From a virus (lineage: Duplodnaviria > Heunggongvirae > Uroviricota > Caudoviricetes): 51,177 nucleotides of DNA. A program made the translations under genes and the position numbers. Numbering within the stretch: position 1 is the first letter of the stretch; every line of letters starts with the position of its first letter. Location: the IMG/VR virus record IMGVR_UViG_2579778634_000021. The stretch is one strand, 5' to 3'. Below are positions 1,286 to 51,177 of the stretch, piece after piece. A model generated the notes under the pieces. That model was not told where the DNA came from and did not search any database. It was given only the letters and a program-made list of their open reading frames with translations.

Positions 1286-1495
1286 AACCGCAGCACGTTC
1301 TTGCTTAAGACGTGCTGCGGCATAATCCCAATGATTACTCCCTGACAGGGTTCGTAGGCCACTCAATATCAGGTGCAGTTGATGTATCAACACGGTTCAG
1401 CAACACCCGATACTTTTTCCAGGCTTCCAGCAACGAGATTTCTTCCTCTGTTGCAATTTCCAGATCTGCAGCATCCTGAAGCGGCGCAATATGCT
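1286..1495. repeat. direct repeat copy B (tfa 3' end plus terminator hairpin)
   Basis: Partner of 235..450. Contains the 11-bp-stem hairpin ccgcagcacgt/acgtgctgcgg immediately after the tfa stop. Confidence 0.7.
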
Positions 1496-1919
1496 CGCTG
1501 GCTACCTGCATCAGGCTGTTTTTTGTTTCTTCCGCCTCCCGGATCCGGAACAGTTTTTCTGCTTCCGTATCCTTCACCCAGGCTGTGCCGTTCCACTTCT
1601 GAAACTCCCCTTCCGGCGATAACCAGGTAACATTTTCCGGTAACGGACCGAGTTCAGAAATAAATAACTCGTCCCCTGACGCTACGTCATAAACCGTTTT
1701 ACCCCGATGGTCTTCAACGAGATGCCACGATGCCTCATCACTGTTGAAAACAGCCACAAAGCCAGCAGGAATATCTGGTGGTGCAATATCGGTACTGTTT
1801 GCTGGCAGACCTGTATGAGGCGGAATATATGCGTCACCTTCACCAATAAATTCATTAGTTCCGGCCAGCAGATTATAAATTTTTATGGTCCGTGCTTGTT
1901 CACTCATTCTGAATGCCAT
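1335..1919 (-). CDS. tfa: tail fibre assembly protein Tfa
   Basis: 194-aa ORF directly downstream of the side tail fibre gene, with the start overlapping the stf stop. Conserved Tfa C-terminal domain. Confidence 0.85.
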
Positions 1920-4900
1920 TATGCAAGCCTCACAATATAGTTAAATGCGATGTTTTTGACGGTGTTTTCCGCGTTACCCGCAGCGTTAACGGTGATGGTG
2001 TGTCCATGTGAACCAATCGCAACGGAGTGCGTATGCGCACCAATACCTACAGTATGTGCATGTGCGCCAGAACTTGCTGCAGTACCAGACAGCGAGTGGG
2101 TATGAGCACCTGCTGACTGTGTCTGAATACGTTGATAATACGATCTATAGGAAGAAGTCTCCGGCCTTACTTGATACTGTGAATCCTGGACATAAGTGAA
2201 CCCACCGCCATCATAAAATGCTAACGCAGAACCGCCGCCTCCTGGCCAACGAATACCATTACCATGAGTATGATCACCGGCAGACCCCGTAGAGCCACTC
2301 AGACTGTGCGTATGCGCCCCGGTGTTATTCGTGGATTTAGTGCCGTAATCAAACGACGATGTGGTTTTCGTCCCCAAATCCGTACTGGATGCGCTGGCGC
2401 TGTGGGTGTGCGATTTAATGCCGTCCTGTTCCTGAGACAATACGGCTCGATCACTGGCGGGCTTGCCCTTAATCGTCCAGCCACGCATATCAGGAATAAC
2501 GCCTGACGGATAAGCCACTGCAAGTTTCGGGTAAGCAGATTTGTCAAAAGTCTGCCCCTGCATCAGGGCATAACCAGACGGAACGGTATCTGATGGCCAC
2601 GGGATTGGTGCACCGACTGGGTAGCTTTCTGGTGGAAGATTTTTCGAGGTATAAACTTCTGCCCAGTCTTCCTCAAAACCATAACCGTCTCTTGAAGAAC
2701 GGTAGAACAGACCACCATTTCTGTAATGCGCCTTCATCTGCAGGGTCCGGCAACTTCCGACTCCGGTATAGAAGTTAACCAGAATATAGCTGTCGCCAGA
2801 GCGGGTGACATTGTAAGCGCCTGATTCGGCATTCCAGGGAACGGCTCCATCCGAATCCGCATAAGCCCCCGTCGAACGTCGGGCAAATGCACCAATATTT
2901 TCCGGCGTGAGGTTAATATCCGCCGAGCCATCAAACTTAACACCGTTAATTTTTGGGTCTGCCGCAAGTTTCGTCGCGGTATCGGCGTTCCCCTTCAGTG
3001 CCCCGGTGATCCCATCAGTAACAGACAACGGACCTGAAATAGTCCCTCCAGTTGTTGACAGCGCTCCAATATCTGATGGTGTAGGTTTCTGATGTGAGCT
3101 ATACATCGTATAAACAACACCATCGGTAACGCTGGAAGGCTTACTCGCTGAATATGTTAGCGAGGTATAAATAGAAACTGACGCATTTGTAGTACAATCC
3201 CAATGGATATTTACACTCGTCGCATAATTGCCAATCTCAACGTAAATATCATATATATCGCCGGATGTGTTGATCCAGGCGAAATTCGTTAATCCGACGG
3301 CTGTACGCTTCCACAAAGCTCCGGTAATCCCTTTGGGGTTTCCATTGCCTGCTCGTAGAACCAGTTCAGATATACCTGCCTGTTGAGGTGCCCCCACGTT
3401 AAATCCAGCGCCACCAATCAATGCGATGTAAACGATGGAACTCGCTTGTGGCATGGTAACCGTTGCCAGTTTGAACCACCCTGCCCCGCCAGAGAAAGAG
3501 ATCGTTACTGAATTTAAAGTGCCAATATCTTTCGGTGTTAATGTTATATCCGCAGTCAGTGCTTTCCCGTTAACTTTTCGGTTAGATGGTACCCTGCCAT
3601 TCGCATTGTCATTCGCTGCTTTAACTGCCTTCGGTGTCGCGGCAAGCGTTTCAGATGTGCTGTTGGTTGCACTGCTGAGCTGTACTATCCCCTTTTTCGT
3701 CGTGCTCGCATCCTCAAGCGCCACGGCGGATGCAATATCCTCTGCCCGTTTTGCCGCTGTCTCGGCGCGCGTTGCCGCGGATTCCGCCGTACTTTTGCTC
3801 TGAGCTGCCGCCGTCGCACTGCCAGCTGCCTCTGTCGCCTTCGTGGATGCCGTCGTGGCGCTGCCCTTTGCTGCTGACGCCTGTCTGGTCGCCTCATCTT
3901 TTGAAGCAGACGCAGATGATGCCGATGACGCCGCTGAACTGGCTGACGATGCGGCTGCCGCCTTAGAGGAAGCAGCATTGTCTGCTGAAGTCTTTGCATT
4001 TGTTTCAGAGGTTTTTGCTGCAGAAGCAGACCTCGCTGCTGCAGTGGCTTGCTCAGTGGCTTTGCCAGCCTTCGTTGTGGCTGTTGAAGCGGATGATGCG
4101 GCGCTTTCTGCCGATTTTCCGGCGGCGGTGGCACTGGCTGAGGCCTGCCCGGCACTTGTTGACGCGGCACTGGCAGATAATGCAGCCGCTGTTTTTGAAC
4201 CTGCCGCAGTTGAGGCGCTCTGTCCCGCTGCTGTTTCAGAAGACTTAGCGTTCGTCTCGGACGTTTTTGCCGCCTTCGCGGAATTTCCTGCCGCCGTTGC
4301 CGAGGAAGCTGCACTACTGGCACTTGATGATGCATTCGTTTCTGAAGATTTCGCTGCCTCTTTTGAGGCCGCCGCACCCCGTGCCGAGGTGGCAGCTTCT
4401 GACGCCTTCGTGGTCGCTGTGGATGCAGAAGTGGCTGCCGATTTTTGTGATGCTGCGGCATTCGTTTCTGACGTTTTCGCGGCACTGGCGCTGGTAGCTG
4501 CCGCGCTTTTTGATGACTCTGCAGCAGCAGCACTTTTTGATGCCTCAGAGGCTTTTGCTGATGCCGTTCCTGCGCTGGAAAAAGCCTCCTGAGCCGACGT
4601 CGCGGCCTGTCCGGCTGACGTGCTGGCTGCACGTGCTGAGCCTGCAGCATCAGTCGCATGGGTTGCCGCCTCACGGGCTGATGTGCTGGCATCGCCGGCT
4701 GACTTCTTCGCGGCTGCCGTGTTCTGTGCCACTGCGGACGCGTTACGCGCCACCTCTTCCACCATCTGCTCAAAGCGGCGCAGTGCCTCCGGTCGGACAT
4801 CATCCTCCGTCATGGCACCGAGAAAATCATTCAGCGTACCTGGTCTGGAACCTTCATAGACGGTAATGGTCCCGGCATGTGAAGGCGGAAAACCTTCAAC

Positions 4901-28336: not shown

Positions 28337-30310
28337 TTATGCTGCTACGGCATTCACACCAACAGTAAGACTTTCAATCAGCACAGGGTAAGTTGCCGCA
28401 TTTCCGGTAATATCCGTAATTGCCAGCGCGTTGGCCTCAAAGGCTGCATTCGTCCATCTGGTCAGCGTAAACGGTTTTCCTGCTGCATTATCAAGCACCG
28501 GCGTGACGTTCAGCGAGCCACCACCCGGGAAGCGGAAAGTCAGCGTGTGCCAGTCGTGATCGAACGGACCATAACTACCAAGCCGCTGTGATGTGGTGTT
28601 TGCATGATACATCACATTGATGTTTGTTTTATCAGTCTGCAGATAGAAGGCCGCAATATAACCCTCCTCTGATTCCGCTCCCGGCCATCCACTACCGCGC
28701 CAGTAAATACCCGCAGAATATTGATTTGCAGAAGCATTGAGAGATACATCATCGGGGATTTTAAAGCGCAGCGTGATTTCACCGCCGTTATCGAACAGCT
28801 CCTTCCCCTTACCGGCATCAATTGCGTGCGATACTTTCCAGGTCTTTTTCTGTGCAAGACCATTTTCTGGTTTTTCAAGACGAAGGGCTTTTTTACCTGA
28901 ACCACTGTCACTGACCAGCGTGTTTTTGACATCTGTCAGCGTCCAGCCCTGCGAAGCCAGAGCGGCATTTTCCGCATTCACATCATAAGCCAGCACTGAC
29001 TGTATCTTTGTCGGGACAACGGCTTCAGGCTGAGTATCGCCACTCTCCTGTGCTGGTTGCGATACGCCTCCGCCTGAAGAAACCGCGGCTTTTGTCACTT
29101 TCCCGGAAACAAAATCTGCCACTCTGCCCACATGCAGAAGAATGGCTGTTGCCAGACGGTCGGAAATAATTCCGCGACGCGCCCATGAACCAAAGTGGGT
29201 TTTACGATCGGATGTTGTCCAGCTCTTCGCATCCGTTCGTCCACCGGAACCATAATACCCGATAGCCGGAATATCCGGGTCTTCTGACGGTTCATTGGTC
29301 CCGACTTTCTGACCATTGTCATCCATCATAAACGGCACAAAGAAGATATTTTTACCGGCTTTGGTTTTGTATGCGCCATAGACGGCATCGTATTGCGCTG
29401 AATACGTCTCCTTCCAGTAGTACGTCGTGTCACCACAAATCCAGGGCACCAGAGAAGGAGAAGCACCAGCGCACTGACCGGATACTCCCGCCAGGTCAGA
29501 ACGGTATTTTTCCACCATGGCATCAAACATGGCGGGCTGACTGGCGTACGCTCCCTGTTTTAAATCAAACTCGCCCTGCATCCAGACAACACAAAGCAGT
29601 ATGTTTTTGGGGTTTGCCTTCAGCGCGGCCTGAGTGCGTGTCAGCAGGTCTTTATACAACGGCTTATCAACGCCCCATCGTTCAGATTTATCCGACGCTC
29701 CTGAACTTTCACTGAACGTTCCGTCAGCACCGGCTGTAAACGCAGAGCCACCACGACAGCACGGCACTAACAAAATACCCGCATTTTCCGGCATAAAGGG
29801 CAACAGCTTTTTGGCAATATGCAATCCCTGTCCGACACACCCATACTGCTCTGCGCTGGCTTTCGGATGAGAAAAACGGCTCAAATCCTGCACATCATGC
29901 AGGCAGTGGTCCGCCGGAATGATGTCGTTATATGCACAGGCCGCACCACCCGGTGTCACCGTACTGCGACGCGCCAGCTGTTTAATACGCGGGTCCGGAC
30001 GGTCATATGTCTCCGGCAGCGGCAGGCCTTCACCATACGCCATGCCGTTTGACTGTCCGGCCAGCGCAATGACAAAGTAATATTCTGGTTCAACAACAAC
30101 AGTCCGGGTACCATCTCCCCCCGGTGAAACTACCGGAGAGGTCATATCCCCTTCAGCGACTATAGCCTGGATAAATTCAGCACCATAACCCGCGTTTGAG
30201 ATAATCGGACTACCATAGGGTTGCCAGCCTTCCTTCAGTTTTTGCGTCAGTTTTCCTGCGAGGTCTGACGGCGATGATGCCCTGACCACGTCATAGTGTT
30301 TAAATGCCAT
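28337..30310 (-). CDS. nanS: prophage sialate O-acetylesterase-like protein (NanS-p type)
   Basis: About 657 aa from MAFKHYDVV. N-terminal domain typical of prophage NanS-p, a GQSN esterase motif, and the usual position between the Q region and the lysis cassette. Confidence 0.75.
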   Translation of the reverse strand: MAFKHYDVVRASSPSDLAGKLTQKLKEGWQPYGSPIISNAGYGAEFIQAIVAEGDMTSPVVSPGGDGTRTVVVEPEYYFVIALAGQSNGMAYGEGLPLPETYDRPDPRIKQLARRSTVTPGGAACAYNDIIPADHCLHDVQDLSRFSHPKASAEQYGCVGQGLHIAKKLLPFMPENAGILLVPCCRGGSAFTAGADGTFSESSGASDKSERWGVDKPLYKDLLTRTQAALKANPKNILLCVVWMQGEFDLKQGAYASQPAMFDAMVEKYRSDLAGVSGQCAGASPSLVPWICGDTTYYWKETYSAQYDAVYGAYKTKAGKNIFFVPFMMDDNGQKVGTNEPSEDPDIPAIGYYGSGGRTDAKSWTTSDRKTHFGSWARRGIISDRLATAILLHVGRVADFVSGKVTKAAVSSGGGVSQPAQESGDTQPEAVVPTKIQSVLAYDVNAENAALASQGWTLTDVKNTLVSDSGSGKKALRLEKPENGLAQKKTWKVSHAIDAGKGKELFDNGGEITLRFKIPDDVSLNASANQYSAGIYWRGSGWPGAESEEGYIAAFYLQTDKTNINVMYHANTTSQRLGSYGPFDHDWHTLTFRFPGGGSLNVTPVLDNAAGKPFTLTRWTNAAFEANALAITDITGNAATYPVLIESLTVGVNAVAA

Positions 30311-30513
30311 TATTCCTCCCGGCAGGGATAGTGTATGCAATCAAGATAAGGTGCGGGCTGACGTCAGTCATGGACAAGGGTTCAGAAACAGGAGGATGAC
30401 TACAGCCCGCAATACGAAAAAGACCATACAGTTGCGCAGAGTGATTACTGTCGGGTATTATTCGCCAGCTGAAAATTGATCACTTCACGTTTTGTTGTTT
30501 ATTCCTTGCCACC

Positions 30514-30570
30514 CGCGCTTCCCGGCGCGGGCTTTTTTTTATCCAACAAGAAAGCCCCTCCGGAGAGGGG
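30514..30570. terminator. two back-to-back terminator hairpins
   Basis: cccgcgc..gcgcggg followed by T8 (plus strand), then gcccctccggagaggggc with a U-rich run on the minus strand. Confidence 0.5.
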
Positions 30571-30800
30571 CTGGAGAGTAGCGCTATGTACCGTTCATGC
30601 ATGGTGCAGGGTGCCTCCCGGTGAGTTCAGTATCAGCACCTGAACCCGCACCAGAAAGGATAAGGGGTGTGACCAAACACCTGTCGCTGATATGCCCCTC
30701 CGCACAGGGGGATTCACCATGCCATATTTTTTTAACAAACTTCCCGCTGGCCAGACAATAATCGCCAGCCTGAATTGTGAGTAACGTGGCATTTTACGGG
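30545..30800 (-). repeat. repeat unit 1 (about 250 bp, begins with the hairpin aaagcccctccggagaggggct)
   Basis: Shares several long blocks with 31025..31285, for example catggtgc.gggtgcctcccggt and gggggattcacc...tttttaacaaa...gccagacaat. Confidence 0.6.
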
Positions 30801-31024: not shown

Positions 31025-31285
31025 CTGCACAGAAAAGCCCCTCCGGAGAGGGGCTGAAGTATAGCCTAATTTCTGTCTGTCGCATGGTGCCAGGTGCCTC
31101 CCGGTAAATTCAGCCTGGCTACTGAATTTGCATGTTCGCTGGATCATACACTTTGCCAGATGCCCCGCCGCTGAGGGGGATTCACCACGCGATGCAATTT
31201 TTAACAAATTCTCCGGCAGCCAGACAATCATCAAGCTGTGGAATTGTGAGGTATTTAAAAATTTCGCAGCCTCTTGCCACCCGCT
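31025..31285 (-). repeat. repeat unit 2
   Basis: Same block order as unit 1. A degenerate third copy lies between them at about 30821..30960. Confidence 0.6.
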
Positions 31286-31760: not shown

Positions 31761-32387
31761 TCATCTAGCAATCACTAGAAGTTCTTTCTCCAATTCTCGC
31801 TTCATTGCATAAAACATTTCTGAATCAAGGACCCTCTCGCACCACACGACCCGCCTCCGGCAATACTGAATATCAACTCCTGTTATCTGAGAAATCATCC
31901 TGGCGATATCTTGCGTGCTGTCGCGATTGCAATATCGCCTAATAGCTACATCACGGACAGGGCTTTCACGATGAAAGGTCTCAACCATCACACGTTCAAC
32001 GAAAGCAGCATCATCGGATTCTTTGGCGAGAGCAATGATATTACCTGCCGATGACTGAGGGATGACCAGTTCTCGGGCTTTCTGATGGAGTTCATCTCCA
32101 CGTAGTCCGTCTTCTTCATACAGACGCATGACAACAGACTCAATCTGCTTAGCTTTGTCATCGCTCCACTGACTGCGAATCATCAGTCGCCCAATAACGT
32201 TAATTGCACCACAAGGAGAATCATCACCAGCGTTAACATTTCCCCATACCTGTAGCATGTAGTGAACCCATGCTTTCTGACGAGAGTTAATGATTTTCTT
32301 CGGATGCCTCCATATGCGGCGGAAATGAGCATCATTAATAAAGTTAACCATGCCGAATACTGGGGTTAGCCGCATCACAGCCCCCAT
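31761..32387 (-). CDS. putative late-gene regulator in the Q position (Q-like by position only)
   Basis: 208-aa ORF immediately upstream of the terminator-rich region and the late genes. I could not match it to lambda Q. Confidence 0.4.
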   Translation of the reverse strand: MGAVMRLTPVFGMVNFINDAHFRRIWRHPKKIINSRQKAWVHYMLQVWGNVNAGDDSPCGAINVIGRLMIRSQWSDDKAKQIESVVMRLYEEDGLRGDELHQKARELVIPQSSAGNIIALAKESDDAAFVERVMVETFHRESPVRDVAIRRYCNRDSTQDIARMISQITGVDIQYCRRRVVWCERVLDSEMFYAMKRELEKELLVIAR

Positions 32388-32518
32388 CCTTTACAATGAC
32401 ACCACACTTCAAACATTCGTTTCACAACTTCACGGCAGTAGAAACCGTCAGCATCACATGTCAGGTCATAGCGATCTCCGTGCTTCAGTCTCATATAGCA
32501 TTCGAATAATCTGTTCAT
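32375..32518 (-). CDS. small Cys-containing protein (paralog of 49447..49584)
   Basis: 47-aa ORF MNRLFECYMRLKHGDRYDLTCDADGFYCREVVKRMFEVWCHCKGWGL, about 65% identical to the small ORF near xis. Confidence 0.45.
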   Translation of the reverse strand: MNRLFECYMRLKHGDRYDLTCDADGFYCREVVKRMFEVWCHCKGWGL

Positions 32519-32609
32519 ATACTCTTCGCCATGAACTCCGCTATTACGCTGCTCATGCGCTTTTCCAGACGACCTGAATAAAGCCATGCGTTCAGGCACC
32601 TGCTGAATA

Positions 32610-32810
32610 TCACGCATCAGTAGCTTTCCCCTTATCCCATCCACGATGAACCATAAGGACACCGTTGACGACGGCGTGCCGTTTGCCTTCTTTATCACCG
32701 ACATATTTTCTGACCGTAGCACGATTACAGTTCAGTTTTCGTGAAACTTCAGTCATATTGCCTCGTGCCTGGATAAGCAATTCCGGTATTGTTTGAATTG
32801 TGGCGTTCAT
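32610..32810 (-). CDS. ninH: NinH
   Basis: 66 aa, close to lambda NinH (TIPELLIQARGNMTEVSRKLNCNRATVRKYV). Confidence 0.85.
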   Translation of the reverse strand: MNATIQTIPELLIQARGNMTEVSRKLNCNRATVRKYVGDKEGKRHAVVNGVLMVHRGWDKGKATDA

Positions 32811-33479: not shown

Positions 33480-33671
33480 CTATCCGGAGTGACAATTAAA
33501 TCTTGCTCGACGCCTTAGCCACCGGATATCCCACAGGTGAGCCGTATAGTTGAAGGTTTTAACATCAGATTCTTTGGGGACTGGCCTGGGTTTATTTCGG
33601 GAGCGTTTGGTTGGAAGGTAATTGCAGTTTTCACAGACGATATCGGTGATGCTTCGTCGCTGTCGTCTCAT
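33480..33671 (-). CDS. ninE: NinE (copy 1)
   Basis: 63 aa, [30 protein letters not shown]..., near-identical to lambda NinE. Confidence 0.85.
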
Positions 33672-34078
33672 TCGTACCTCCTGTCGGTAAATCTGACACC
33701 CTGATCCACGGCCCAGGATGTTGTGTACTCAATCAGGCTTGCCATACGCTTCACGCTCATTTGCGCACTGCTTTCGCGGATATTGACGTATTCACCTTCA
33801 AGACCTGGCAAAACATCAGCTTCCTGTTTTGTCGCCACGGCATGACCGCTGATTAACAAAACTTTCCACTGTTCTGGTTTTAGCCACCTGCCGCACCACT
33901 TAACCTGGCGGGATATATCAGCGACCATCGCGTGAAATTTTGCATTTTGAGCGAGATTACGCTTGTAATCGGTGATACGGATCGTAACGGGTTTGTCTTT
34001 ATCGAGAGTTGTTGCAAGGATGGCGTTAATGGCGAATTGTTGCTGCTGCTTACTTCGGAGGAAGATAGTCTGGTTCAT
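33668..34078 (-). CDS. ninB: NinB recombination protein (copy 1)
   Basis: 136 aa, NinB/Orf family. Confidence 0.8.
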
Positions 34079-34132: not shown

Positions 34133-34834
34133 TCAGAATTCAAATTGTCTTGCCCGCAGGCTTTTCAGCATTGGCATGGCCCACTGGATAACGGAACTTG
34201 ACATGTCGAGACGTGTTACCTCCCTTAGTAGCGCGTCTCTGTTCTTCGTCACCATGTAGATAGTCTCAAACGCAATGTCATACAGCTTGTTCGTGTATGA
34301 GGAGTTCAGCTCTTTCATTATGGGGTACAGCTGCTTGCTAAGGTCCTGGGCTTTTTCCATCCAGAGTTGCATGTAGCAAAGGAGGATGATTTCCTCGGCT
34401 GTGAATTGTGGCTGAATCTGCGGCTGCTGTTCGGTTGGTGCTGTTTTTCCCTGGCTGAAATAGCAGTCTTCCAGTTTTTCGAACACTTCCCACGCCTGAT
34501 CGGTTTCGAGCATTTTTGCGTGACGGGCTGCGCCGCGTTCTGTCCAGAGGATGAGGGAGCGAACATTGCGGGCGATTTTCACAGAGTAACTTTCTGTTAC
34601 CTCGCGGCTAACAGACTCGCTTAAAGATAGTCTGTGCTTGAACTCACGTAGTTCATTCCCTTCCAACTTAAAGAAATGTTTTCCCTGTACAAATCGCGCA
34701 GAGTTACGGGAAAAATTCATTTTTATATTGACTGTTTCAGTGCCATACAATTGCGCCAATAATTCTGTAGTAATTACGGGGATCTGGTTGTAGGCAATTG
34801 GGGAAAGAGTTTCAACGGAAATTTGAGTCGCCAT
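34133..34834 (-). CDS. ORF6N-domain protein (antirepressor-like, putative DNA-binding)
   Basis: 233 aa. The N-terminal block VITTELLAQLYGTETVNIKMNFSRNSARFVQGKHFFKLEG fits the ORF6N pattern. Inserted between the two ninB-ninE copies. Confidence 0.6.
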   Translation of the reverse strand: MATQISVETLSPIAYNQIPVITTELLAQLYGTETVNIKMNFSRNSARFVQGKHFFKLEGNELREFKHRLSLSESVSREVTESYSVKIARNVRSLILWTERGAARHAKMLETDQAWEVFEKLEDCYFSQGKTAPTEQQPQIQPQFTAEEIILLCYMQLWMEKAQDLSKQLYPIMKELNSSYTNKLYDIAFETIYMVTKNRDALLREVTRLDMSSSVIQWAMPMLKSLRARQFEF

Positions 34835-35112
34835 GACAACGCCCTCTGGTTGATGAATTTAACTATCACCACCGTCAGGTGCAAATCTTTGGGTGGTGAG
34901 ACGTACAGGGTTTGCACTACCGGATCAACCAACCGGCGAGCCTTTCGGCTCCCCCATACGCCCCACCATAATTCAGATGTGCGTGTGCTTACGACAACAA
35001 AAAACACGCTCGCGGCGTGTGTCTGTCGCGGTTGAATATCCGGGGTGCAAATCCCGACGCCAGATTTTGCTGGCGCGTGAGGAATATAGCCCCGAATAAA
35101 TCATCACGTCAA

Positions 35113-35295
35113 TCACCTTGTTTTCCTCGCACGATGTCTTAGCCACCGGATATCCCACAGGTGAGCCGTGTAATTGAAGGTTTTAACGTCAGATTCTTTT
35201 GGGATTGGCCTGGGTTTATTTCTGGAGCGTTTCGTTGGAAGGTATTTGCAGTTTTCGCAGATGATGTCGGTGATACTTCGTCGCTGTCGCCTCAT
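35113..35295 (-). CDS. ninE: NinE (copy 2)
   Basis: 60 aa, [64 protein letters not shown] overlap with the upstream methylase stop. Confidence 0.85.
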
Positions 35296-35819
35296 GCCGC
35301 CCTCCTGACGCCCTGCCCGATCGCCATCAATGCCGCTTTGGATACGGTAGTAAACATCCGTCGAGGACTGATGAACGGTCGCCAAATCAGCAGCATGGAA
35401 CCTTTGCTGTTTCCCTTCTTCTCCAGCCCTGTCGATGGTTCGATAAAATTAATCCGTCCATCAGTGATGATGCGAACTTCGTCAACACTCTCCAGAGCCT
35501 TACTGAACCATCCGACAGACATATCCTCTGGCACAAGCATCACTACCGTCTGTCGTTGTTGTATGCACTGCTCAGCGGCTTTTTCCACCCACGGCCTGAT
35601 ATTGCTGTACGGTGGGTTATTCCAGATTGCACCGTGGCTTACCCACTCAGAATTGAGCGCGTCGTCGGCCTCAGTTAGCCAGTGAGCACACAGAGCATTT
35701 TTGTCGCTCGCTGCCGAATCCAGCCAGAATCCAAACTCAATATCCAGTGCATCAAAAAGCCAAAGCGGCGTTTGCCAGCAGTCCTTGTCGTGTGCTGGCG
35801 TATTTGATTTGATAGTCAT
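35292..35819 (-). CDS. phage DNA N6-adenine methyltransferase (Dam type)
   Basis: 175 aa with the NPPY catalytic motif (IWNNPPYSN) and an N-terminal CWQTP motif. ATGA-coupled to ninB copy 2. Confidence 0.8.
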
Positions 35820-36262
35820 GCAGCCTTCCCTTTTCGTTGTGACCATTCATACTCTCGCCAGGAGTCATCACTCCACCGCACGTTGCGCTCTGAGCCGAAC
35901 CAGAACATGATTTCGATAAGCTCAGTCATGTTGGCCTTTCGCATTTTGCTGGTACGCACACCAAGCATGACAACGCCACCGTCGATACCAGGCACACTTC
36001 GTTGCTCCAGTTTTTTGGTCTTAAGCCACAGGGCAGTGAACAGGTCTTTCCAGTCTTCCGGCGCCAGCCGTTGACCATGCCATAGCACCTGACGCGAAAC
36101 ATCGTTCAGCATCGGCCACATACGGTCATTCTGCGCTTTGCTGCGCTTGGGTTCTTTAACGTGGACTTCGTGGGGTGACTTGTCGTCGATGGGTAGTGAG
36201 AGAATGGCGTCTATGGCGTTATTTCTGATTGCTTCGTTGCGAAGCAGAAAGGTTTGCTTCAT
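35816..36262 (-). CDS. ninB: NinB recombination protein (copy 2)
   Basis: Start taken at MKQTFLLRNEAIRNNAIDAIL. Paralog of 33668..34078. Confidence 0.8.
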   Translation of the reverse strand: MKQTFLLRNEAIRNNAIDAILSLPIDDKSPHEVHVKEPKRSKAQNDRMWPMLNDVSRQVLWHGQRLAPEDWKDLFTALWLKTKKLEQRSVPGIDGGVVMLGVRTSKMRKANMTELIEIMFWFGSERNVRWSDDSWREYEWSQRKGKAA

Positions 36263-43577: not shown

Positions 43578-44363
43578 ATGAGTACAGCACTCGCAACGCT
43601 GGCAGGGAAGCTGGCTGAACGTGTCGGCATGGATTCTGTCGACCCACAGGAACTGATCACCACTCTTCGCCAGACGGCATTTAAAGGCGATGCCAGCGAT
43701 GCGCAGTTCATCGCATTGTTGATCGTCGCCAACCAGTACGGCCTTAATCCGTGGACGAAAGAAATTTACGCCTTCCCTGATAAGCAGAACGGCATCGTTC
43801 CGGTGGTGGGCGTTGATGGCTGGTCCCGCATCATCAATGAAAACCAGCAGTTTGATGGCATGGACTTTGAGCAGGACAATGAATCCTGTACATGCCGGAT
43901 TTACCGCAAGGACCGTAATCATCCGATCTGCGTTACCGAATGGATGGATGAATGCCGCCGCGAACCATTCAAAACCCGCGAAGGCAGAGAAATCACCGGA
44001 CCGTGGCAGTCGCATCCCAAACGGATGTTACGGCATAAAGCCATGATTCAGTGTGCCCGTCTGGCCTTCGGATTTGCTGGTATCTATGACAAGGATGAAG
44101 CCGAGCGCATTGTCGAAAATACTGCATACACTGCAGAACGTCAGCCAGAACGCGACATCACTCCGGTTAACGATGAAACCATGCAGGAGATTAACACTCT
44201 GCTGATCGCCCTGGATAAAACATGGGATGACGACTTATTGCCGCTCTGTTCCCAGATATTTCGCCGCGACATTCGCGCATCGTCAGAACTGACACAGGCC
44301 GAAGCAGTGAAAGCTCTTGGATTCCTGAAACAGAAAGCCACTGAGCAGAAGGTGGCAGCATGA
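43578..44363 (+). CDS. bet: Bet single-strand annealing protein
   Basis: 261 aa, near-identical to lambda Bet. Confidence 0.95.
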
Positions 44364-45040
44364 CACCGGACATTATCCTGCAGCGTACCGGGATCGACGT
44401 GAGAGCTGTCGAACAGGGGGATGATGCATGGCACAAATTACGGCTCGGCGTCATCACCGCTTCAGAAGTTCACAACGTGATAGCAAAGCCCCGCTCAGGA
44501 AAGAAGTGGCCTGACATGAAAATGTCCTACTTCCACACCCTGCTGGCTGAGGTTTGCACCGGTGTGGCTCCGGAAGTTAATGCTAAGGCGCTGGCCTGGG
44601 GAAAACAGTACGAGAACGACGCCAGAACCCTGTTTGAATTCACTTCCGGCGTGAATGTTACTGAATCCCCGATCATCTATCGCGACGAAAGTATGCGCAC
44701 AGCCTGCTCTCCCGATGGTTTATGCAGTGACGGCAATGGCCTTGAGCTGAAATGCCCGTTTACCTCCAGGGATTTCATGAAGTTCCGGCTCGGTGGTTTC
44801 GAGGCCATAAAGTCGGCTTACATGGCCCAGGTGCAGTACAGCATGTGGGTGACGCGAAAAGATGCCTGGTACTTTGCCAACTATGACCCGCGTATGAAGC
44901 GTGAAGGCCTGCATTATGTCGTGATTGAGCGGAATGAAAAGTACATGGCGAATTTTGACGAGATGGTGCCGGAGTTCATCGAAAAAATGGACGAGGCACT
45001 GGCTGAAATTGGTTTTGTATATGGGGAGCAATGGCAATGA
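44360..45040 (+). CDS. exo: lambda-type 5'-3' exonuclease Exo
   Basis: 226 aa, near-identical to lambda Exo. Confidence 0.95.
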
Positions 45041-49119: not shown

Positions 49120-49199
49120 GCTGGCCTGATGCAATCGTAACTCTGGGGATGGTATTCGCAGCAGCGTTTGTTGTGTACTCGATTTGTCGATGGGGATAA
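49116..49199 (+). CDS. small hydrophobic peptide (27 aa)
   Basis: MSWPDAIVTLGMVFAAAFVVYSICRWG. ATGA overlap with the upstream stop; one predicted transmembrane helix. Confidence 0.3.
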   Translation: MSWPDAIVTLGMVFAAAFVVYSICRWG

Positions 49200-49203
49200 C
49201 CAC

Positions 49204-49446
49204 ATGTTCGCTTTGATTCAACGCGGGCAGATATACACGGACAGAGCCGGATACCCCGTGGTGATTACTCGCATCACTGAGCACTCAGTGTTCTTTCGAC
49301 GGATGGACGGACGATCCGGGCGGGTACGCATCACTGAGTTCAACAGCCTGTTCGAACATATTGACCACCAGGAGTACCGCAAAATTCTCGCGGACACTGA
49401 GCAGGAAAAGCACCTGAAAAAATTACGAGCCATAAAAAGGAAGTAA
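49204..49446 (+). CDS. hypothetical protein
   Basis: 80 aa from MFALIQRGQIY. Confidence 0.4.
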   Translation: MFALIQRGQIYTDRAGYPVVITRITEHSVFFRRMDGRSGRVRITEFNSLFEHIDHQEYRKILADTEQEKHLKKLRAIKRK

Positions 49447-49584
49447 AGAATGAATAAAGCATTTGAACGATGGGTCCACCAGCGTTACGGCAATCGCTAT
49501 GACCTGACGCGAGATGTTGACGGCTTCTACTGTCGTGAAGTTGTGAAGCGAATGTTTGACGTGTGGTGCCACTGCCGTGGATGA
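49447..49584 (+). CDS. small Cys-containing protein (paralog of 32375..32518)
   Basis: 45 aa, MNKAFERWVHQRYGNRYDLTRDVDGFYCREVVKRMFDVWCHCRG. Confidence 0.45.
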   Translation, partial: RMNKAFERWVHQRYGNRYDLTRDVDGFYCREVVKRMFDVWCHCRG

Positions 49585-49602: not shown

Positions 49603-49857
49603 ATGCAGACAATCATCTATCAGATAACCCCCAGCAAATGGTGTACGGAGAGAGTCCTTATTGCATCAACAGGGCTAAAGCCCGGCACCATCGAGCGGGC
49701 CAGAAGAAAGTCATGGATGCAGGGAAAAGAATACCGCCATTACGCTGTAGAAGGTGATCCTGGGCATTACAGTGAATGCCTGTACAACATCGAAGAAATT
49801 ATGCGATGGATCGAAAACCAGAAACAACCAGGTGCCAAAAATGCAAGTTCCGGTTAA
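49603..49857 (+). CDS. xis: putative excisionase
   Basis: 84-aa basic protein immediately upstream of int. Confidence 0.5.
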   Translation: MQTIIYQITPSKWCTERVLIASTGLKPGTIERARRKSWMQGKEYRHYAVEGDPGHYSECLYNIEEIMRWIENQKQPGAKNASSG

Positions 49858-49890: not shown

Positions 49891-51177
49891 ATGAGTAACG
49901 TATCATACCCGACAGGCGTTGAAAACCATGGAGGATCACTCCGTATATGGTTTCACTATAATGGCAAACGTGTCAGAGAAAACCTCGGTGTTCCTGACAC
50001 CGCCAAAAACCGGAAGATCGCAGGTGAACTTCGCACTTCCGTTTGTTTTGCAATCAGAATGGGGAGTTTCGACTACGCTACACAGTTCCCTAATTCCCCT
50101 AACCTGAAACACTTTGGTCTGGGAAAAAGAGAGATAACCGTTAAGGCACTTTCGGAAAAATGGTTGGACCTTAAGAAAATTGAGATTTGTGCGAATGCAC
50201 TTAATCGTTACCAGTCAGTAATTAAAAACATGTTGCCTATGTTGGGTGAGAAAAAACTGGTTTCATCCATAACAAAAGAGGATTTACTTTTCGCAAGGAG
50301 AGATTTGTTGACCGGTTACCAAAAGCTTTCTAATGGAAAGATTTCTTCCATAAAAGGGCGCTCAGTGGTCACAGTAAACTACTATATGACAACCATAGCT
50401 GGAATGTTTCAATTTGCAACAGATAATGGTTATACCTCAGGAAACCCATTTAACGGTCTGGCCCCCTTAAAAAAGTCCAAGGTAAAACCAGATCCTCTCA
50501 CCCGTGACGAATTTATTCGTTTTATTGAGGCTTGCCGTCATCAACAAACAAAAAACCTGTGGATTCTCGCTGTATACACGGGTATTCGTCACGGGGAGCT
50601 GGTATCGCTGGCATGGGAAGATATAGATCTTAAAGCAAGGACTATAACCATCCGTAGGAATTATACAAAACTTGGCGAATTCACTCCACCAAAAACCGAT
50701 GCTGGCACCGGAAGGACAATTCATCTGGTTCAACCAGCTATTGATGCTCTTAAAAGTCAGGCGGAAATGACCATGCTTGGAAAGCAACATTCTGTAGAGG
50801 TAAAGCAGAGGGAATATGGGAGAAGTACTGTGCATAAATGCACTTTTGTTTTTAGTCCTCAGGTAATAAAACAGCGGCAGTTTTCCGGACCGCACTATAA
50901 GGTTGACTCCATCAGGGAGTCATGGACAAGTATCTTAAAACGCGCAGGTCTGAGACACAGAAAATCGTACCAATCCAGGCATACTTATGCATGCTGGTCA
51001 CTTGCCGCTGGAGCTAATCCTAGTTTTATCGCAAGCCAGATGGGCCACACAAACGCACAAATGGTATTCAATGTTTACGGAGCATGGATGAAAGACAACA
51101 ATCACGAACAGATAGAACTCCTTAACAAAAGACTATCTGAAAGTGTCCCATGTATGCCCCATAAGAAAGCTGGGTAA
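49891..51177 (+). CDS. int: tyrosine-type site-specific integrase
   Basis: 428 aa. The C-terminal catalytic region (RHTYACWSLAAGANPSFIASQMGHTNAQMVFNVYGAW) has the R..H.R..Y arrangement. Last gene of the prophage at the window edge. Confidence 0.9.
   Translation: MSNVSYPTGVENHGGSLRIWFHYNGKRVRENLGVPDTAKNRKIAGELRTSVCFAIRMGSFDYATQFPNSPNLKHFGLGKREITVKALSEKWLDLKKIEICANALNRYQSVIKNMLPMLGEKKLVSSITKEDLLFARRDLLTGYQKLSNGKISSIKGRSVVTVNYYMTTIAGMFQFATDNGYTSGNPFNGLAPLKKSKVKPDPLTRDEFIRFIEACRHQQTKNLWILAVYTGIRHGELVSLAWEDIDLKARTITIRRNYTKLGEFTPPKTDAGTGRTIHLVQPAIDALKSQAEMTMLGKQHSVEVKQREYGRSTVHKCTFVFSPQVIKQRQFSGPHYKVDSIRESWTSILKRAGLRHRKSYQSRHTYACWSLAAGANPSFIASQMGHTNAQMVFNVYGAWMKDNNHEQIELLNKRLSESVPCMPHKKAG

Follow-up and report, generated by a model that had tools for sequence, protein, structure and literature searches.

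The exo-xis region of bacteriophage lambda encodes a set of small, non-essential, early proteins (orf55, Ea8.5, Orf63, Orf61, Orf60a, and Orf73) that modulate lysogenization and prophage induction (PMC3824215, PMC8614690). Within the N-dependent pL operon, lambda orf55 is the last small open reading frame (ORF) ahead of xis. An equivalent position is occupied by one of two related small ORFs in a 51,177-nucleotide stretch of Caudoviricetes DNA (IMG/VR record IMGVR_UViG_2579778634_000021), the whole of which is referred to here as the window and which corresponds to a lambda-like prophage read in reverse. The first of these ORFs, copy A, lies in the nin region at 32375..32518 on the minus strand, and the second, copy B, lies on the xis side at 49450..49584 on the plus strand. 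Copy A resembles P22 NinZ, NinH, and NinY in being a short nin ORF directly upstream of the late antiterminator gene with a stop/start overlap; the P22 NinZ neighbourhood is positionally equivalent to that of copy A, without homology. The same gene orders are found around closer relatives, with DUF4222, the small ORF, xis, and int following one another in BP-4795 and PhiR5_1, and ninH, the small ORF, and a Q-like gene in PhiR5_2 and the E. coli G1/2 prophage.

The best explanation of the two ORFs, taken as a whole and given a probability of about 0.6, is that they belong to a coding family with two lineages, each tied to its own genomic slot, that the pair in the window has a mosaic origin, and that the product would be a metal-independent binding protein. 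The family is already catalogued, in the PHROGs and among RefSeq hypothetical proteins, but is uncharacterised. What is new is modest: the two slot-specific lineages, a revised gene model for the nin copy, and the rejection of zinc-finger and linker interpretations.

Coding capacity and range of the family

Copy A encodes 47 amino acids plus a stop codon (MNRLFECYMRLKHGDRYDLTCDADGFYCREVVKRMFEVWCHCKGWGL), and copy B encodes 44 amino acids plus a stop codon (MNKAFERWVHQRYGNRYDLTRDVDGFYCREVVKRMFDVWCHCRG). The initial annotation had described a small ORF of 45–47 residues at two distant sites of the window; both ORFs are present, and the coordinates in the nin region and the length of copy A stand as given, but the start on the xis side had been placed at 49447, and the ATG lies 3 nt (one codon) downstream, at 49450, leaving copy B with 44 residues. 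The two proteins share 30 of 44 residues (68%) in a gap-free BLASTP alignment with an E value of 2e-23. The similarity of the DNA ends where the ORFs end, and the 60-nt flanks are unrelated (15/60 positions identical upstream). No indels separate the copies, and the frame-disrupting differences that had been named as a sign of a non-coding repeat are absent. In the core (residues 14–44), 11 of the 16 nucleotide differences fall at third codon positions, and dN/dS is 0.115 for the core and 0.23 for the whole ORF, so that the pairwise alignment of DNA and protein proposed in the initial annotation returns a similarity restricted to the ORF and a pattern of the coding type.

The same pattern extends to 22 homologous DNAs taken from independent loci. 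Among these, pS ranges from 0.64 to 0.82, near saturation, while pN ranges from 0.12 to 0.23, and the pN/pS ratio is 0.19 within the xis-side genes, 0.25 within the nin-side genes, and 0.28 between the two sides. Because synonymous divergence is near saturation and non-synonymous divergence is low, it is the product and not the DNA that is conserved. The sense frame is open in all 22 DNAs, whereas the best antisense frame is open in 15. Antisense ORFs do lie opposite both copies (32396..32509 on the plus strand opposite copy A and 49423..49572 on the minus strand opposite copy B), and their likeness had been pointed out correctly, yet it is a by-product of the conserved DNA. The earlier suggestion that an ORF conserved at two loci is functional is borne out in that both ORFs are genuine, conserved protein-coding genes, as shown by purifying selection, the open sense frame, an independent annotation by PGAP (WP_032144054.1), the match to PHROG families, and a fold predicted with confidence for both copies.

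Profile searches, also proposed at the outset, place both copies in PHROG families that carry no assigned function. Copy B matches PHROG 3871 with an E value of 3e-32, and copy A matches PHROG 17609 at 2e-33 and PHROG 3871 at 1.5e-25; each copy matches both families, and PHROG 17609 models an 80-residue chimeric form that is discussed below. This membership is direct, with nothing different in kind between the catalogued proteins and those of the window. Neither copy matches Pfam or NCBIfam, neither matches the PADLOC defence-system profiles up to an E value of 1, and a comparison of all 26 members of the family alignment with Pfam at E values of up to 10 returned only noise.

A profile search covering all of 1.84 billion representative sequences returned only 30 representatives (at 50% identity) with E values of 0.001 or less, essentially all of them 40–60 residues long, in addition to fragments and fusions. 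The named hosts are Escherichia, Shigella, Salmonella, Citrobacter, Klebsiella, Enterobacter, Pantoea, Serratia, Xenorhabdus, and their relatives. The family is a narrow one, of about 44–50 residues, in lambdoid prophages of Enterobacterales. Named members include BP-4795 ORF3 (YP_001449240.1), Fels-1 STM0895.1n, WP_032144054.1, and genes of VT1-Sakai and many other Stx phages. A tblastn search of the family against phage records matched 44 records, with P22 and lambda not among them. Members with 82% identity to the E. coli protein are also found in two records labelled Flavobacteriales, locus L017 (CACSKA010000001.1, Chryseobacterium sp.) and OM284015.1 (Elizabethkingia phage EKP1); since the family is otherwise strictly confined to Enterobacterales, these records look mislabelled or contaminated.

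Two genomic slots, two sequence types, and the nin junction

The small ORF is found in two slots. Of 218 instances in the loci that were fetched, a redundant set, 191 (~90%) lie on the xis side, 20 (~10%) lie on the nin side, and seven are unclassified; a scan of IMG/VR with a type-neutral pattern gave 10 nin-side instances among the 120 stretches listed. None of these 120 stretches carries both copies on one contig, which is weak evidence since the contigs are fragmentary. When 80 distinct proteins are clustered, the nin-side genes form clusters of their own and share Tyr8–Met9 and Lys43, whereas the xis-side genes carry Trp8–Val9 and Arg43. The xis type follows the pattern ...W-V-x-Q-R-Y...CHC-R-G, and the nin type follows ...Y-M-R-L/Q-K/R-H/Y...CHC-K-G. 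Copy A is 84–89% identical to nin-side genes of unrelated contigs, and copy B is 86–95% identical to xis-side genes elsewhere. As identity within each slot is this high while copies A and B share only 68% of their residues, with a dS of about 1, the pair is not the outcome of a recent duplication.

The pair in the window consists instead of two old paralogues, one from each of two long-separated sequence types, joined by mosaic recombination. The family has a single place in each of the 44 phage records that contain it, the E. coli G1/2 prophage carries the nin copy alone, and the window is closest to phage PhiR5_2 in its nin region and to PhiR5_1 at its int end, all of which is consistent with a mosaic origin. 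In having a dedicated nin-region lineage, the family also differs from the lambda exo-xis proteins.

The genes around the small ORF vary far more than the small ORF itself. On the xis side, it is followed by three unrelated types of excisionase gene: DUF1233, AlpA-like (Pantoea stewartii and Trabulsiella), and lambda-Xis-like (Pantoea sp.). On the nin side, it is followed by three unrelated families of Q genes: PHROG 753 (the window and loci L004, L020, and L023), PF03589 of the lambda-Q type (L007, L117, L177, and L223), and PF06530 of the HK75 type (L128). The upstream gene on the nin side is NinH, NinZ, RusA, NinG, or NinB, and the upstream genes on the xis side vary too. In nearly all distinct contexts, the next gene starts between −22 and +18 nt from the small ORF, and the nin type always overlaps it; the small ORF is always packed against the next gene and has no constant neighbour family. 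In some Pantoea loci, a LexA-like gene is located between the small ORF and xis. In one cluster, represented on two contigs, a divergent member has lost its stop and is continued in frame by a DUF1233 excisionase (L030, positions 2960–3336, from a contig of Logan DRR526068), giving a fusion of about 119 residues from the upstream ATG. This natural fusion to xis hints, if only weakly, that the family has to do with excision.

In the window, copy B is the last exo-xis-region gene of the pL operon and ends 18 nt upstream of xis. The operon runs on one strand from exo (44360–45040) through Ea22, DUF551, and DUF4222 to copy B and xis, which places copy B by position among the exo-xis accessory genes. 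The DUF4222 gene (49168..49446, plus strand; Pfam PF13973, E 3e-15) ends with a TAA codon at 49444–49446 and is the usual, though not constant, upstream neighbour, other genes being found there in Pantoea, Trabulsiella, and Fels-1. Copy B is preceded by a Shine–Dalgarno sequence, AGGAAG, at 49438–49443. The excisionase gene directly downstream (49603..49857, plus strand) is of the DUF1233 type (Pfam PF06806, E 2e-29), is annotated as an excisionase in related phages, and is followed by int (49891..51177, plus strand). The family is a common one: the exact copy B protein is encoded on 726 contigs, and DNA similar to copy B, which also occurs in Shiga-toxin prophages (BP-4795, VT1-Sakai, and Stx1a and Stx2a phages), is found in 861 of 5426 complete E. 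coli genomes (~16%), annotated as "hypothetical protein".

Copy A is the last nin-region gene of the pR operon. Its TGA codon overlaps the ATG of a late antiterminator Q-like gene (cTGATGc), which is encoded on the minus strand at 31761..32375 and gives a product of 204 residues from the ATG at 32375. This protein matches PHROG 753, "anti-termination protein Q-like", with an E value of 3e-68; it has no Pfam match, and PHROG 753 is the sole means by which it is recognized. Its counterpart behind the small ORF of L004 and L020 is 86% identical. Upstream of copy A lies ninH (32610..32810, minus strand; Pfam PF06322, E 3e-29). Between ninH and copy A, the segment 32526..32590 on the minus strand is an internal, 5′ part of a PF06530-type Q gene, 95–97% identical to genes annotated as "antiterminator Q family protein" in many E. 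coli genomes and also alignable to the Q genes of HK75 and STB20-1. The reading frame of the fragment, AWLYSGRLEKRMSSVIAEFM, is identical at 18 of 21 positions to residues 24–44 of HK75 Q, a PF06530 protein, and differs from the frame of the small ORF. A description of this remnant as P22 gp23-like does not hold, as P22 gp23 is lambda-Q-like and NinZ is another gene. An identification of copy A itself with NinZ fails as well, since the NinZ homologue of L004 and L007 is a separate 58-residue gene that follows ninH and precedes the small ORF, and that matches PHROG 1402 and neither 3871 nor 17609.

The segment 32526..32590 marks the junction at which a module consisting of the small ORF and the Q-like gene replaced the resident Q gene. 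Homology to the independent loci L004 and L005 begins at the ATG of copy A (32518) and extends, at 80% identity, through the start of the Q-like gene into its body, which indicates that the small ORF and the Q-like gene travel as a unit. The nin copy came as a two-gene cassette that displaced a PF06530-type Q gene and left a 65-nt remnant behind.

This junction also bears on the gene model. An alternative reading of copy A (32375..32617, minus strand) begins with an ATG overlapping the stop codon of ninH and gives 80 residues; some pipelines annotate this form, as in PhiR5_2 and many assemblies. The first 33 residues of the 80-residue form are translated from junction sequence and from the Q fragment out of its own frame. 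The extension is confined to this one E. coli arrangement, and all alignments of the family start at Met34 of the longer form, which corresponds to 32518. PGAP calls exactly the 47-residue ORF (WP_032144054.1) in E. coli G1/2. The nin copy is accordingly modelled here as a gene of 47 residues, and the 80-residue annotation carries a junk N-terminus.

Of 5426 complete E. coli genomes, 18 share the arrangement found in the window, with 99.7% identity, and the ORF is intact in all 18. The copy A allele of the window carries a cysteine in place of arginine at position 21 (R21C). This position is occupied by arginine in 124 of 136 distinct cores (91%) and forms a β-bridge in the predicted structure. 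The R21C allele is not private to the window, as a look-up of the exact sequence found it elsewhere, including in E. coli ED1a; it is a minority allele, present on 30 and 90 contigs as against 287 and at least 1000 for the arginine allele. A rare allele, found elsewhere, has its ATG changed to CTG.

Predicted fold and candidate function

AlphaFold2 models built with family alignments have the same topology for both copies, with pLDDT values of 88.5 for copy B and 90.4 for copy A. In the models, a helix formed by residues 3–13 is followed by a hairpin-like loop in which residues 21 and 27 are bridged (G-x-RYDLTRD-xx-G-x-Y) and by a second helix formed by residues 30–43. No solved structure resembles the model, and the best match in a search of PDB sequences with the family profile had an E value of 0.9. 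A Foldseek search of BFVD returned one member of the family and weak matches (probability 0.85–0.97) to uncharacterised phage proteins of 57–266 residues. Twelve residues are invariant (Phe5, Glu6, Gly14, Arg16, Tyr17, Asp18, Asp22, Tyr27, Glu30, Val32, Arg34, and Met35), and these make up an aromatic or aliphatic core together with charged residues that could engage in salt bridges.

The predicted helix–hairpin–helix arrangement differs from the β-β-β-α fold of lambda orf55 and from the homeodomain/zinc-finger fold of Ea8.5. Profile–profile comparison by hhalign does not relate the family to either protein, with probabilities of 0.20 for orf55 and 0.22 for Ea8.5, the zinc-finger protein encoded near xis. 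A truncated wing-helix paralogue of the DUF1233 excisionase was also considered as a source of the family; the sequences can be overlaid by MAFFT, but the hhalign probability is 0.25, and there is no match to PF06806.

The presence of cysteine and histidine residues in both copies had led to the suggestion of a small zinc-binding regulator. None of the invariant residues is a cysteine or a histidine; in the 136 distinct cores, Cys28 is present in 92%, Cys40 in 85%, His41 in 76%, and Cys42 in 88%. Natural variants of the motif are abundant, including VWRYLRG (43 member sequences), VWRYCHG (476 contigs), VWCHRRG (244 contigs), and VWRHCRG, and distant members have Ala28 and carry WCAAKG, YCKLEG, or WCLAKG in place of the CHC motif. 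In the single-chain topology predicted by AlphaFold2, Cys28 is located just before, and Cys40 and Cys42 at the end of, one continuous 14-residue helix (30–43). Because these residues lie at opposite ends of the helix, one chain would be poorly placed to offer all of them to one metal ion. No zinc-finger family in Pfam and no fold in the PDB is matched, and a family-wide zinc site is not supported by these models and alignments.

Given its size, predicted fold, and genomic position, a metal-independent binding protein is the best guess for the product. The metal-free mini-domain of helix, β-hairpin, and helix would be held together by an aromatic core and by salt bridges involving Glu6, Arg16, Asp18, Asp22, Glu30, and Arg34, and would bind a partner, protein or nucleic acid, that is common to many hosts or phages. 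The exposed face differs between the two types at positions 7–12 of the first helix, at positions 23–24 of the hairpin tip, and in the C-terminal tail, and a difference in partner or specificity would lie on this type-specific face. No predicted promoter or strong terminator separates either copy from its neighbours, and both copies would be transcribed only on the N-antiterminated delayed-early transcripts, with translation of the small ORF tightly coupled to that of xis or Q. The small protein may then serve as a non-essential modulator of excision or of a late-gene step, like other small exo-xis and nin proteins.

Several points weigh against this proposal. The binding mechanism is deduced from size, fold, and genomic position only, and searches of Pfam, NCBIfam, PADLOC, the PDB, and Foldseek identified no relative of known function by sequence or structure. 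A literature search on the motif REVVKRMF, the Fels-1 locus tag, and the RefSeq accession found no paper, and the exo-xis literature contains no description of the small ORF. Such close coupling with xis or Q would equally be expected if the act of translating the ORF counted for more than the protein made. Copy A has a weak Shine–Dalgarno sequence (GAAGAG, 3 nt before the ATG) in addition to the R21C substitution, and the allele carried by the window might be impaired. Finally, the three cysteines and His41 are still 76–92% conserved, and a metal site may be present in the E. coli clade or across a dimer interface.

Both roles proposed in the initial annotation fare poorly against this evidence. 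If Cys28, Cys40, His41, and Cys42, or a subset of them, possibly shared across a dimer, coordinated zinc in a mini zinc finger, the presence of all four residues in both copies of the window and in most E. coli members would be explained, but the twelve invariant positions include none of these four, which are missing from abundant variants and from distant members, the models hold Cys28 apart from Cys40 and Cys42 on helix 30–43, and no zinc-finger family or fold is matched, which makes this reading improbable. The idea of a recombination linker, in which a 97-nt DNA element mediates module exchange and the ORFs are incidental, deserves hardly any credence. It draws on the two arms at 32385–32481 and 49487–49583, which are 84% complementary and form the sole inverted repeat of at least 40 nt found by a repeat search of the window, and on mosaic junctions that fall at the ends of the ORFs; this last observation is what holds of the linker claim. 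The similarity is bounded by the ORFs, follows codons, lacks indels, and belongs to two slot-tied types, with differences gathered at third positions and a dN/dS of 0.12–0.25. Across homologues, the protein is kept while synonymous sites approach saturation, and the sense frame alone remains open in all 22. A stretch of 97 nt with 84% identity and no exact run of 28 nt or more would be a poor substrate for homologous recombination, and no Rfam family overlaps it.

The remaining alternatives concern what a translated ORF would do. One is that the peptide is functionless and that translating the small ORF delivers or tunes the translation of xis or Q, for which the close packing speaks, with overlaps of the Q start codons (TGATG or ATGA) and distances of 1–18 nt to xis starts, as does the natural variant that reads through into xis; yet 12 invariant residues and a confident fold maintained from Xenorhabdus to Escherichia would be unexpected of a pure coupling device, as would a pN/pS of about 0.2 at saturated pS, and the downstream partners are unrelated and have their own ribosome-binding sites (GAGG before xis in the window), so that such a leader role is distinctly unlikely. 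A dedicated cofactor that binds Xis (xis type) or Q (nin type), or protects it from host proteases, would account for the strict placement of the small ORF next to xis or Q in many genera, for the in-frame fusion to a DUF1233 excisionase on two contigs, and for the different exposed faces of the two types. It is nevertheless highly doubtful: the small protein barely changes while its neighbours fall into three or more unrelated families each for Xis and for Q, a combination that argues against a co-evolving direct partner, the LexA-like gene intervenes before xis in some Pantoea loci, and the fusion is a single cluster, with profile comparison showing no relation to DUF1233 Xis. More speculative still, and a long shot, is the idea that the two lineages are specialised "switch helper" versions, each made together with its trigger (Xis or Q) and acting on a common host machine, such as a protease (FtsH or Lon) or RNA polymerase, so that the trigger would build up or work when it is needed. 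Adjacency to three Xis and three Q families and the fusion of the small ORF to Xis are compatible with this idea, which, if true, would mean an unrecognised control layer shared by both irreversible steps of prophage induction. It is also possible, though unlikely, that only the xis copy is functional and that the nin copy of the window is a decaying passenger carried along with the Q-like gene. The weak Shine–Dalgarno sequence of copy A, which was created by the junction, the substitution of the conserved Arg21, and the CTG allele all point in this direction, and the E. coli lineage is so nearly clonal (99.7%) that selection within it is unmeasurable. Against this, the ORF is intact in 18/18 complete genomes and on well over 1000 contigs, and the nin-type lineage is under purifying selection (pN/pS 0.25) and has, in several genera, persisted ahead of Q genes from three different families.

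Prophage context and implications

The plus strand of the window carries cI, N, the cIII thermoregulator RNA, bet, exo, Ea22, DUF551, DUF4222, copy B, xis, and int, and the minus strand carries cII, O, P, a long nin region, ninH, copy A, and the Q-like gene. The nin region has two NinB genes (36364–35816 and 34078–33668) and two NinE genes (35385–35113 and 33671–33480), all on the minus strand, and a direct repeat (33502–33686 and 35126–35310, 88% identical) is located within this doubled region. As NinB and NinE are also doubled, the small ORF is not the sole gene present twice in this mosaic phage. The two NinB/NinE sets enclose an inserted cassette, and a Dam methylase gene is located at 35846–35292 (minus strand). 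Rfam matches identify an isrK Hfq-binding RNA (35076–34999) and a C4 antisense RNA (34973–34889), both on the minus strand and directly upstream of an ORF6N/P22_AR_C antirepressor gene (34834–34133, minus strand); with them, the nin region contains a P1/Gifsy-like cassette for antirepressor control at 34133–35076.

Downstream of the Q-like gene lie two tandem STnc100 small RNAs on the minus strand (30542–30751 and 31027–31220, with scores of 130 and 139 bits), each ending at a strong terminator (31055–31036 and 30842–30823) and containing one arm of a 52-nt repeat (30692–30743 and 31160–31211). This pair is probably a duplicated pR′–tR′ leader, providing two Q target sites in series. A protein of 667 residues with DUF1737, SASA (sialate O-acetylesterase-like), and DUF6645 domains is encoded at 28337–30340 (minus strand), between the Q-like/STnc100 region and the lysis genes, which is the position of stx in Stx phages. 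Near the tail-fibre end of the window, a 197-nt direct repeat (266–462 and 1315–1511, 88% identical) overlaps a match to the Rfam entry "IS009" (1378–1576, minus strand, 223 bits).

The genes directly behind copy B and copy A are those that commit the prophage to its excision and to late expression (of toxin and lysis functions), respectively. If the small protein modulates either of these steps, it would have a bearing on the induction of Stx phages; otherwise, it would be an ordinary small accessory phage gene moved by mosaic recombination.

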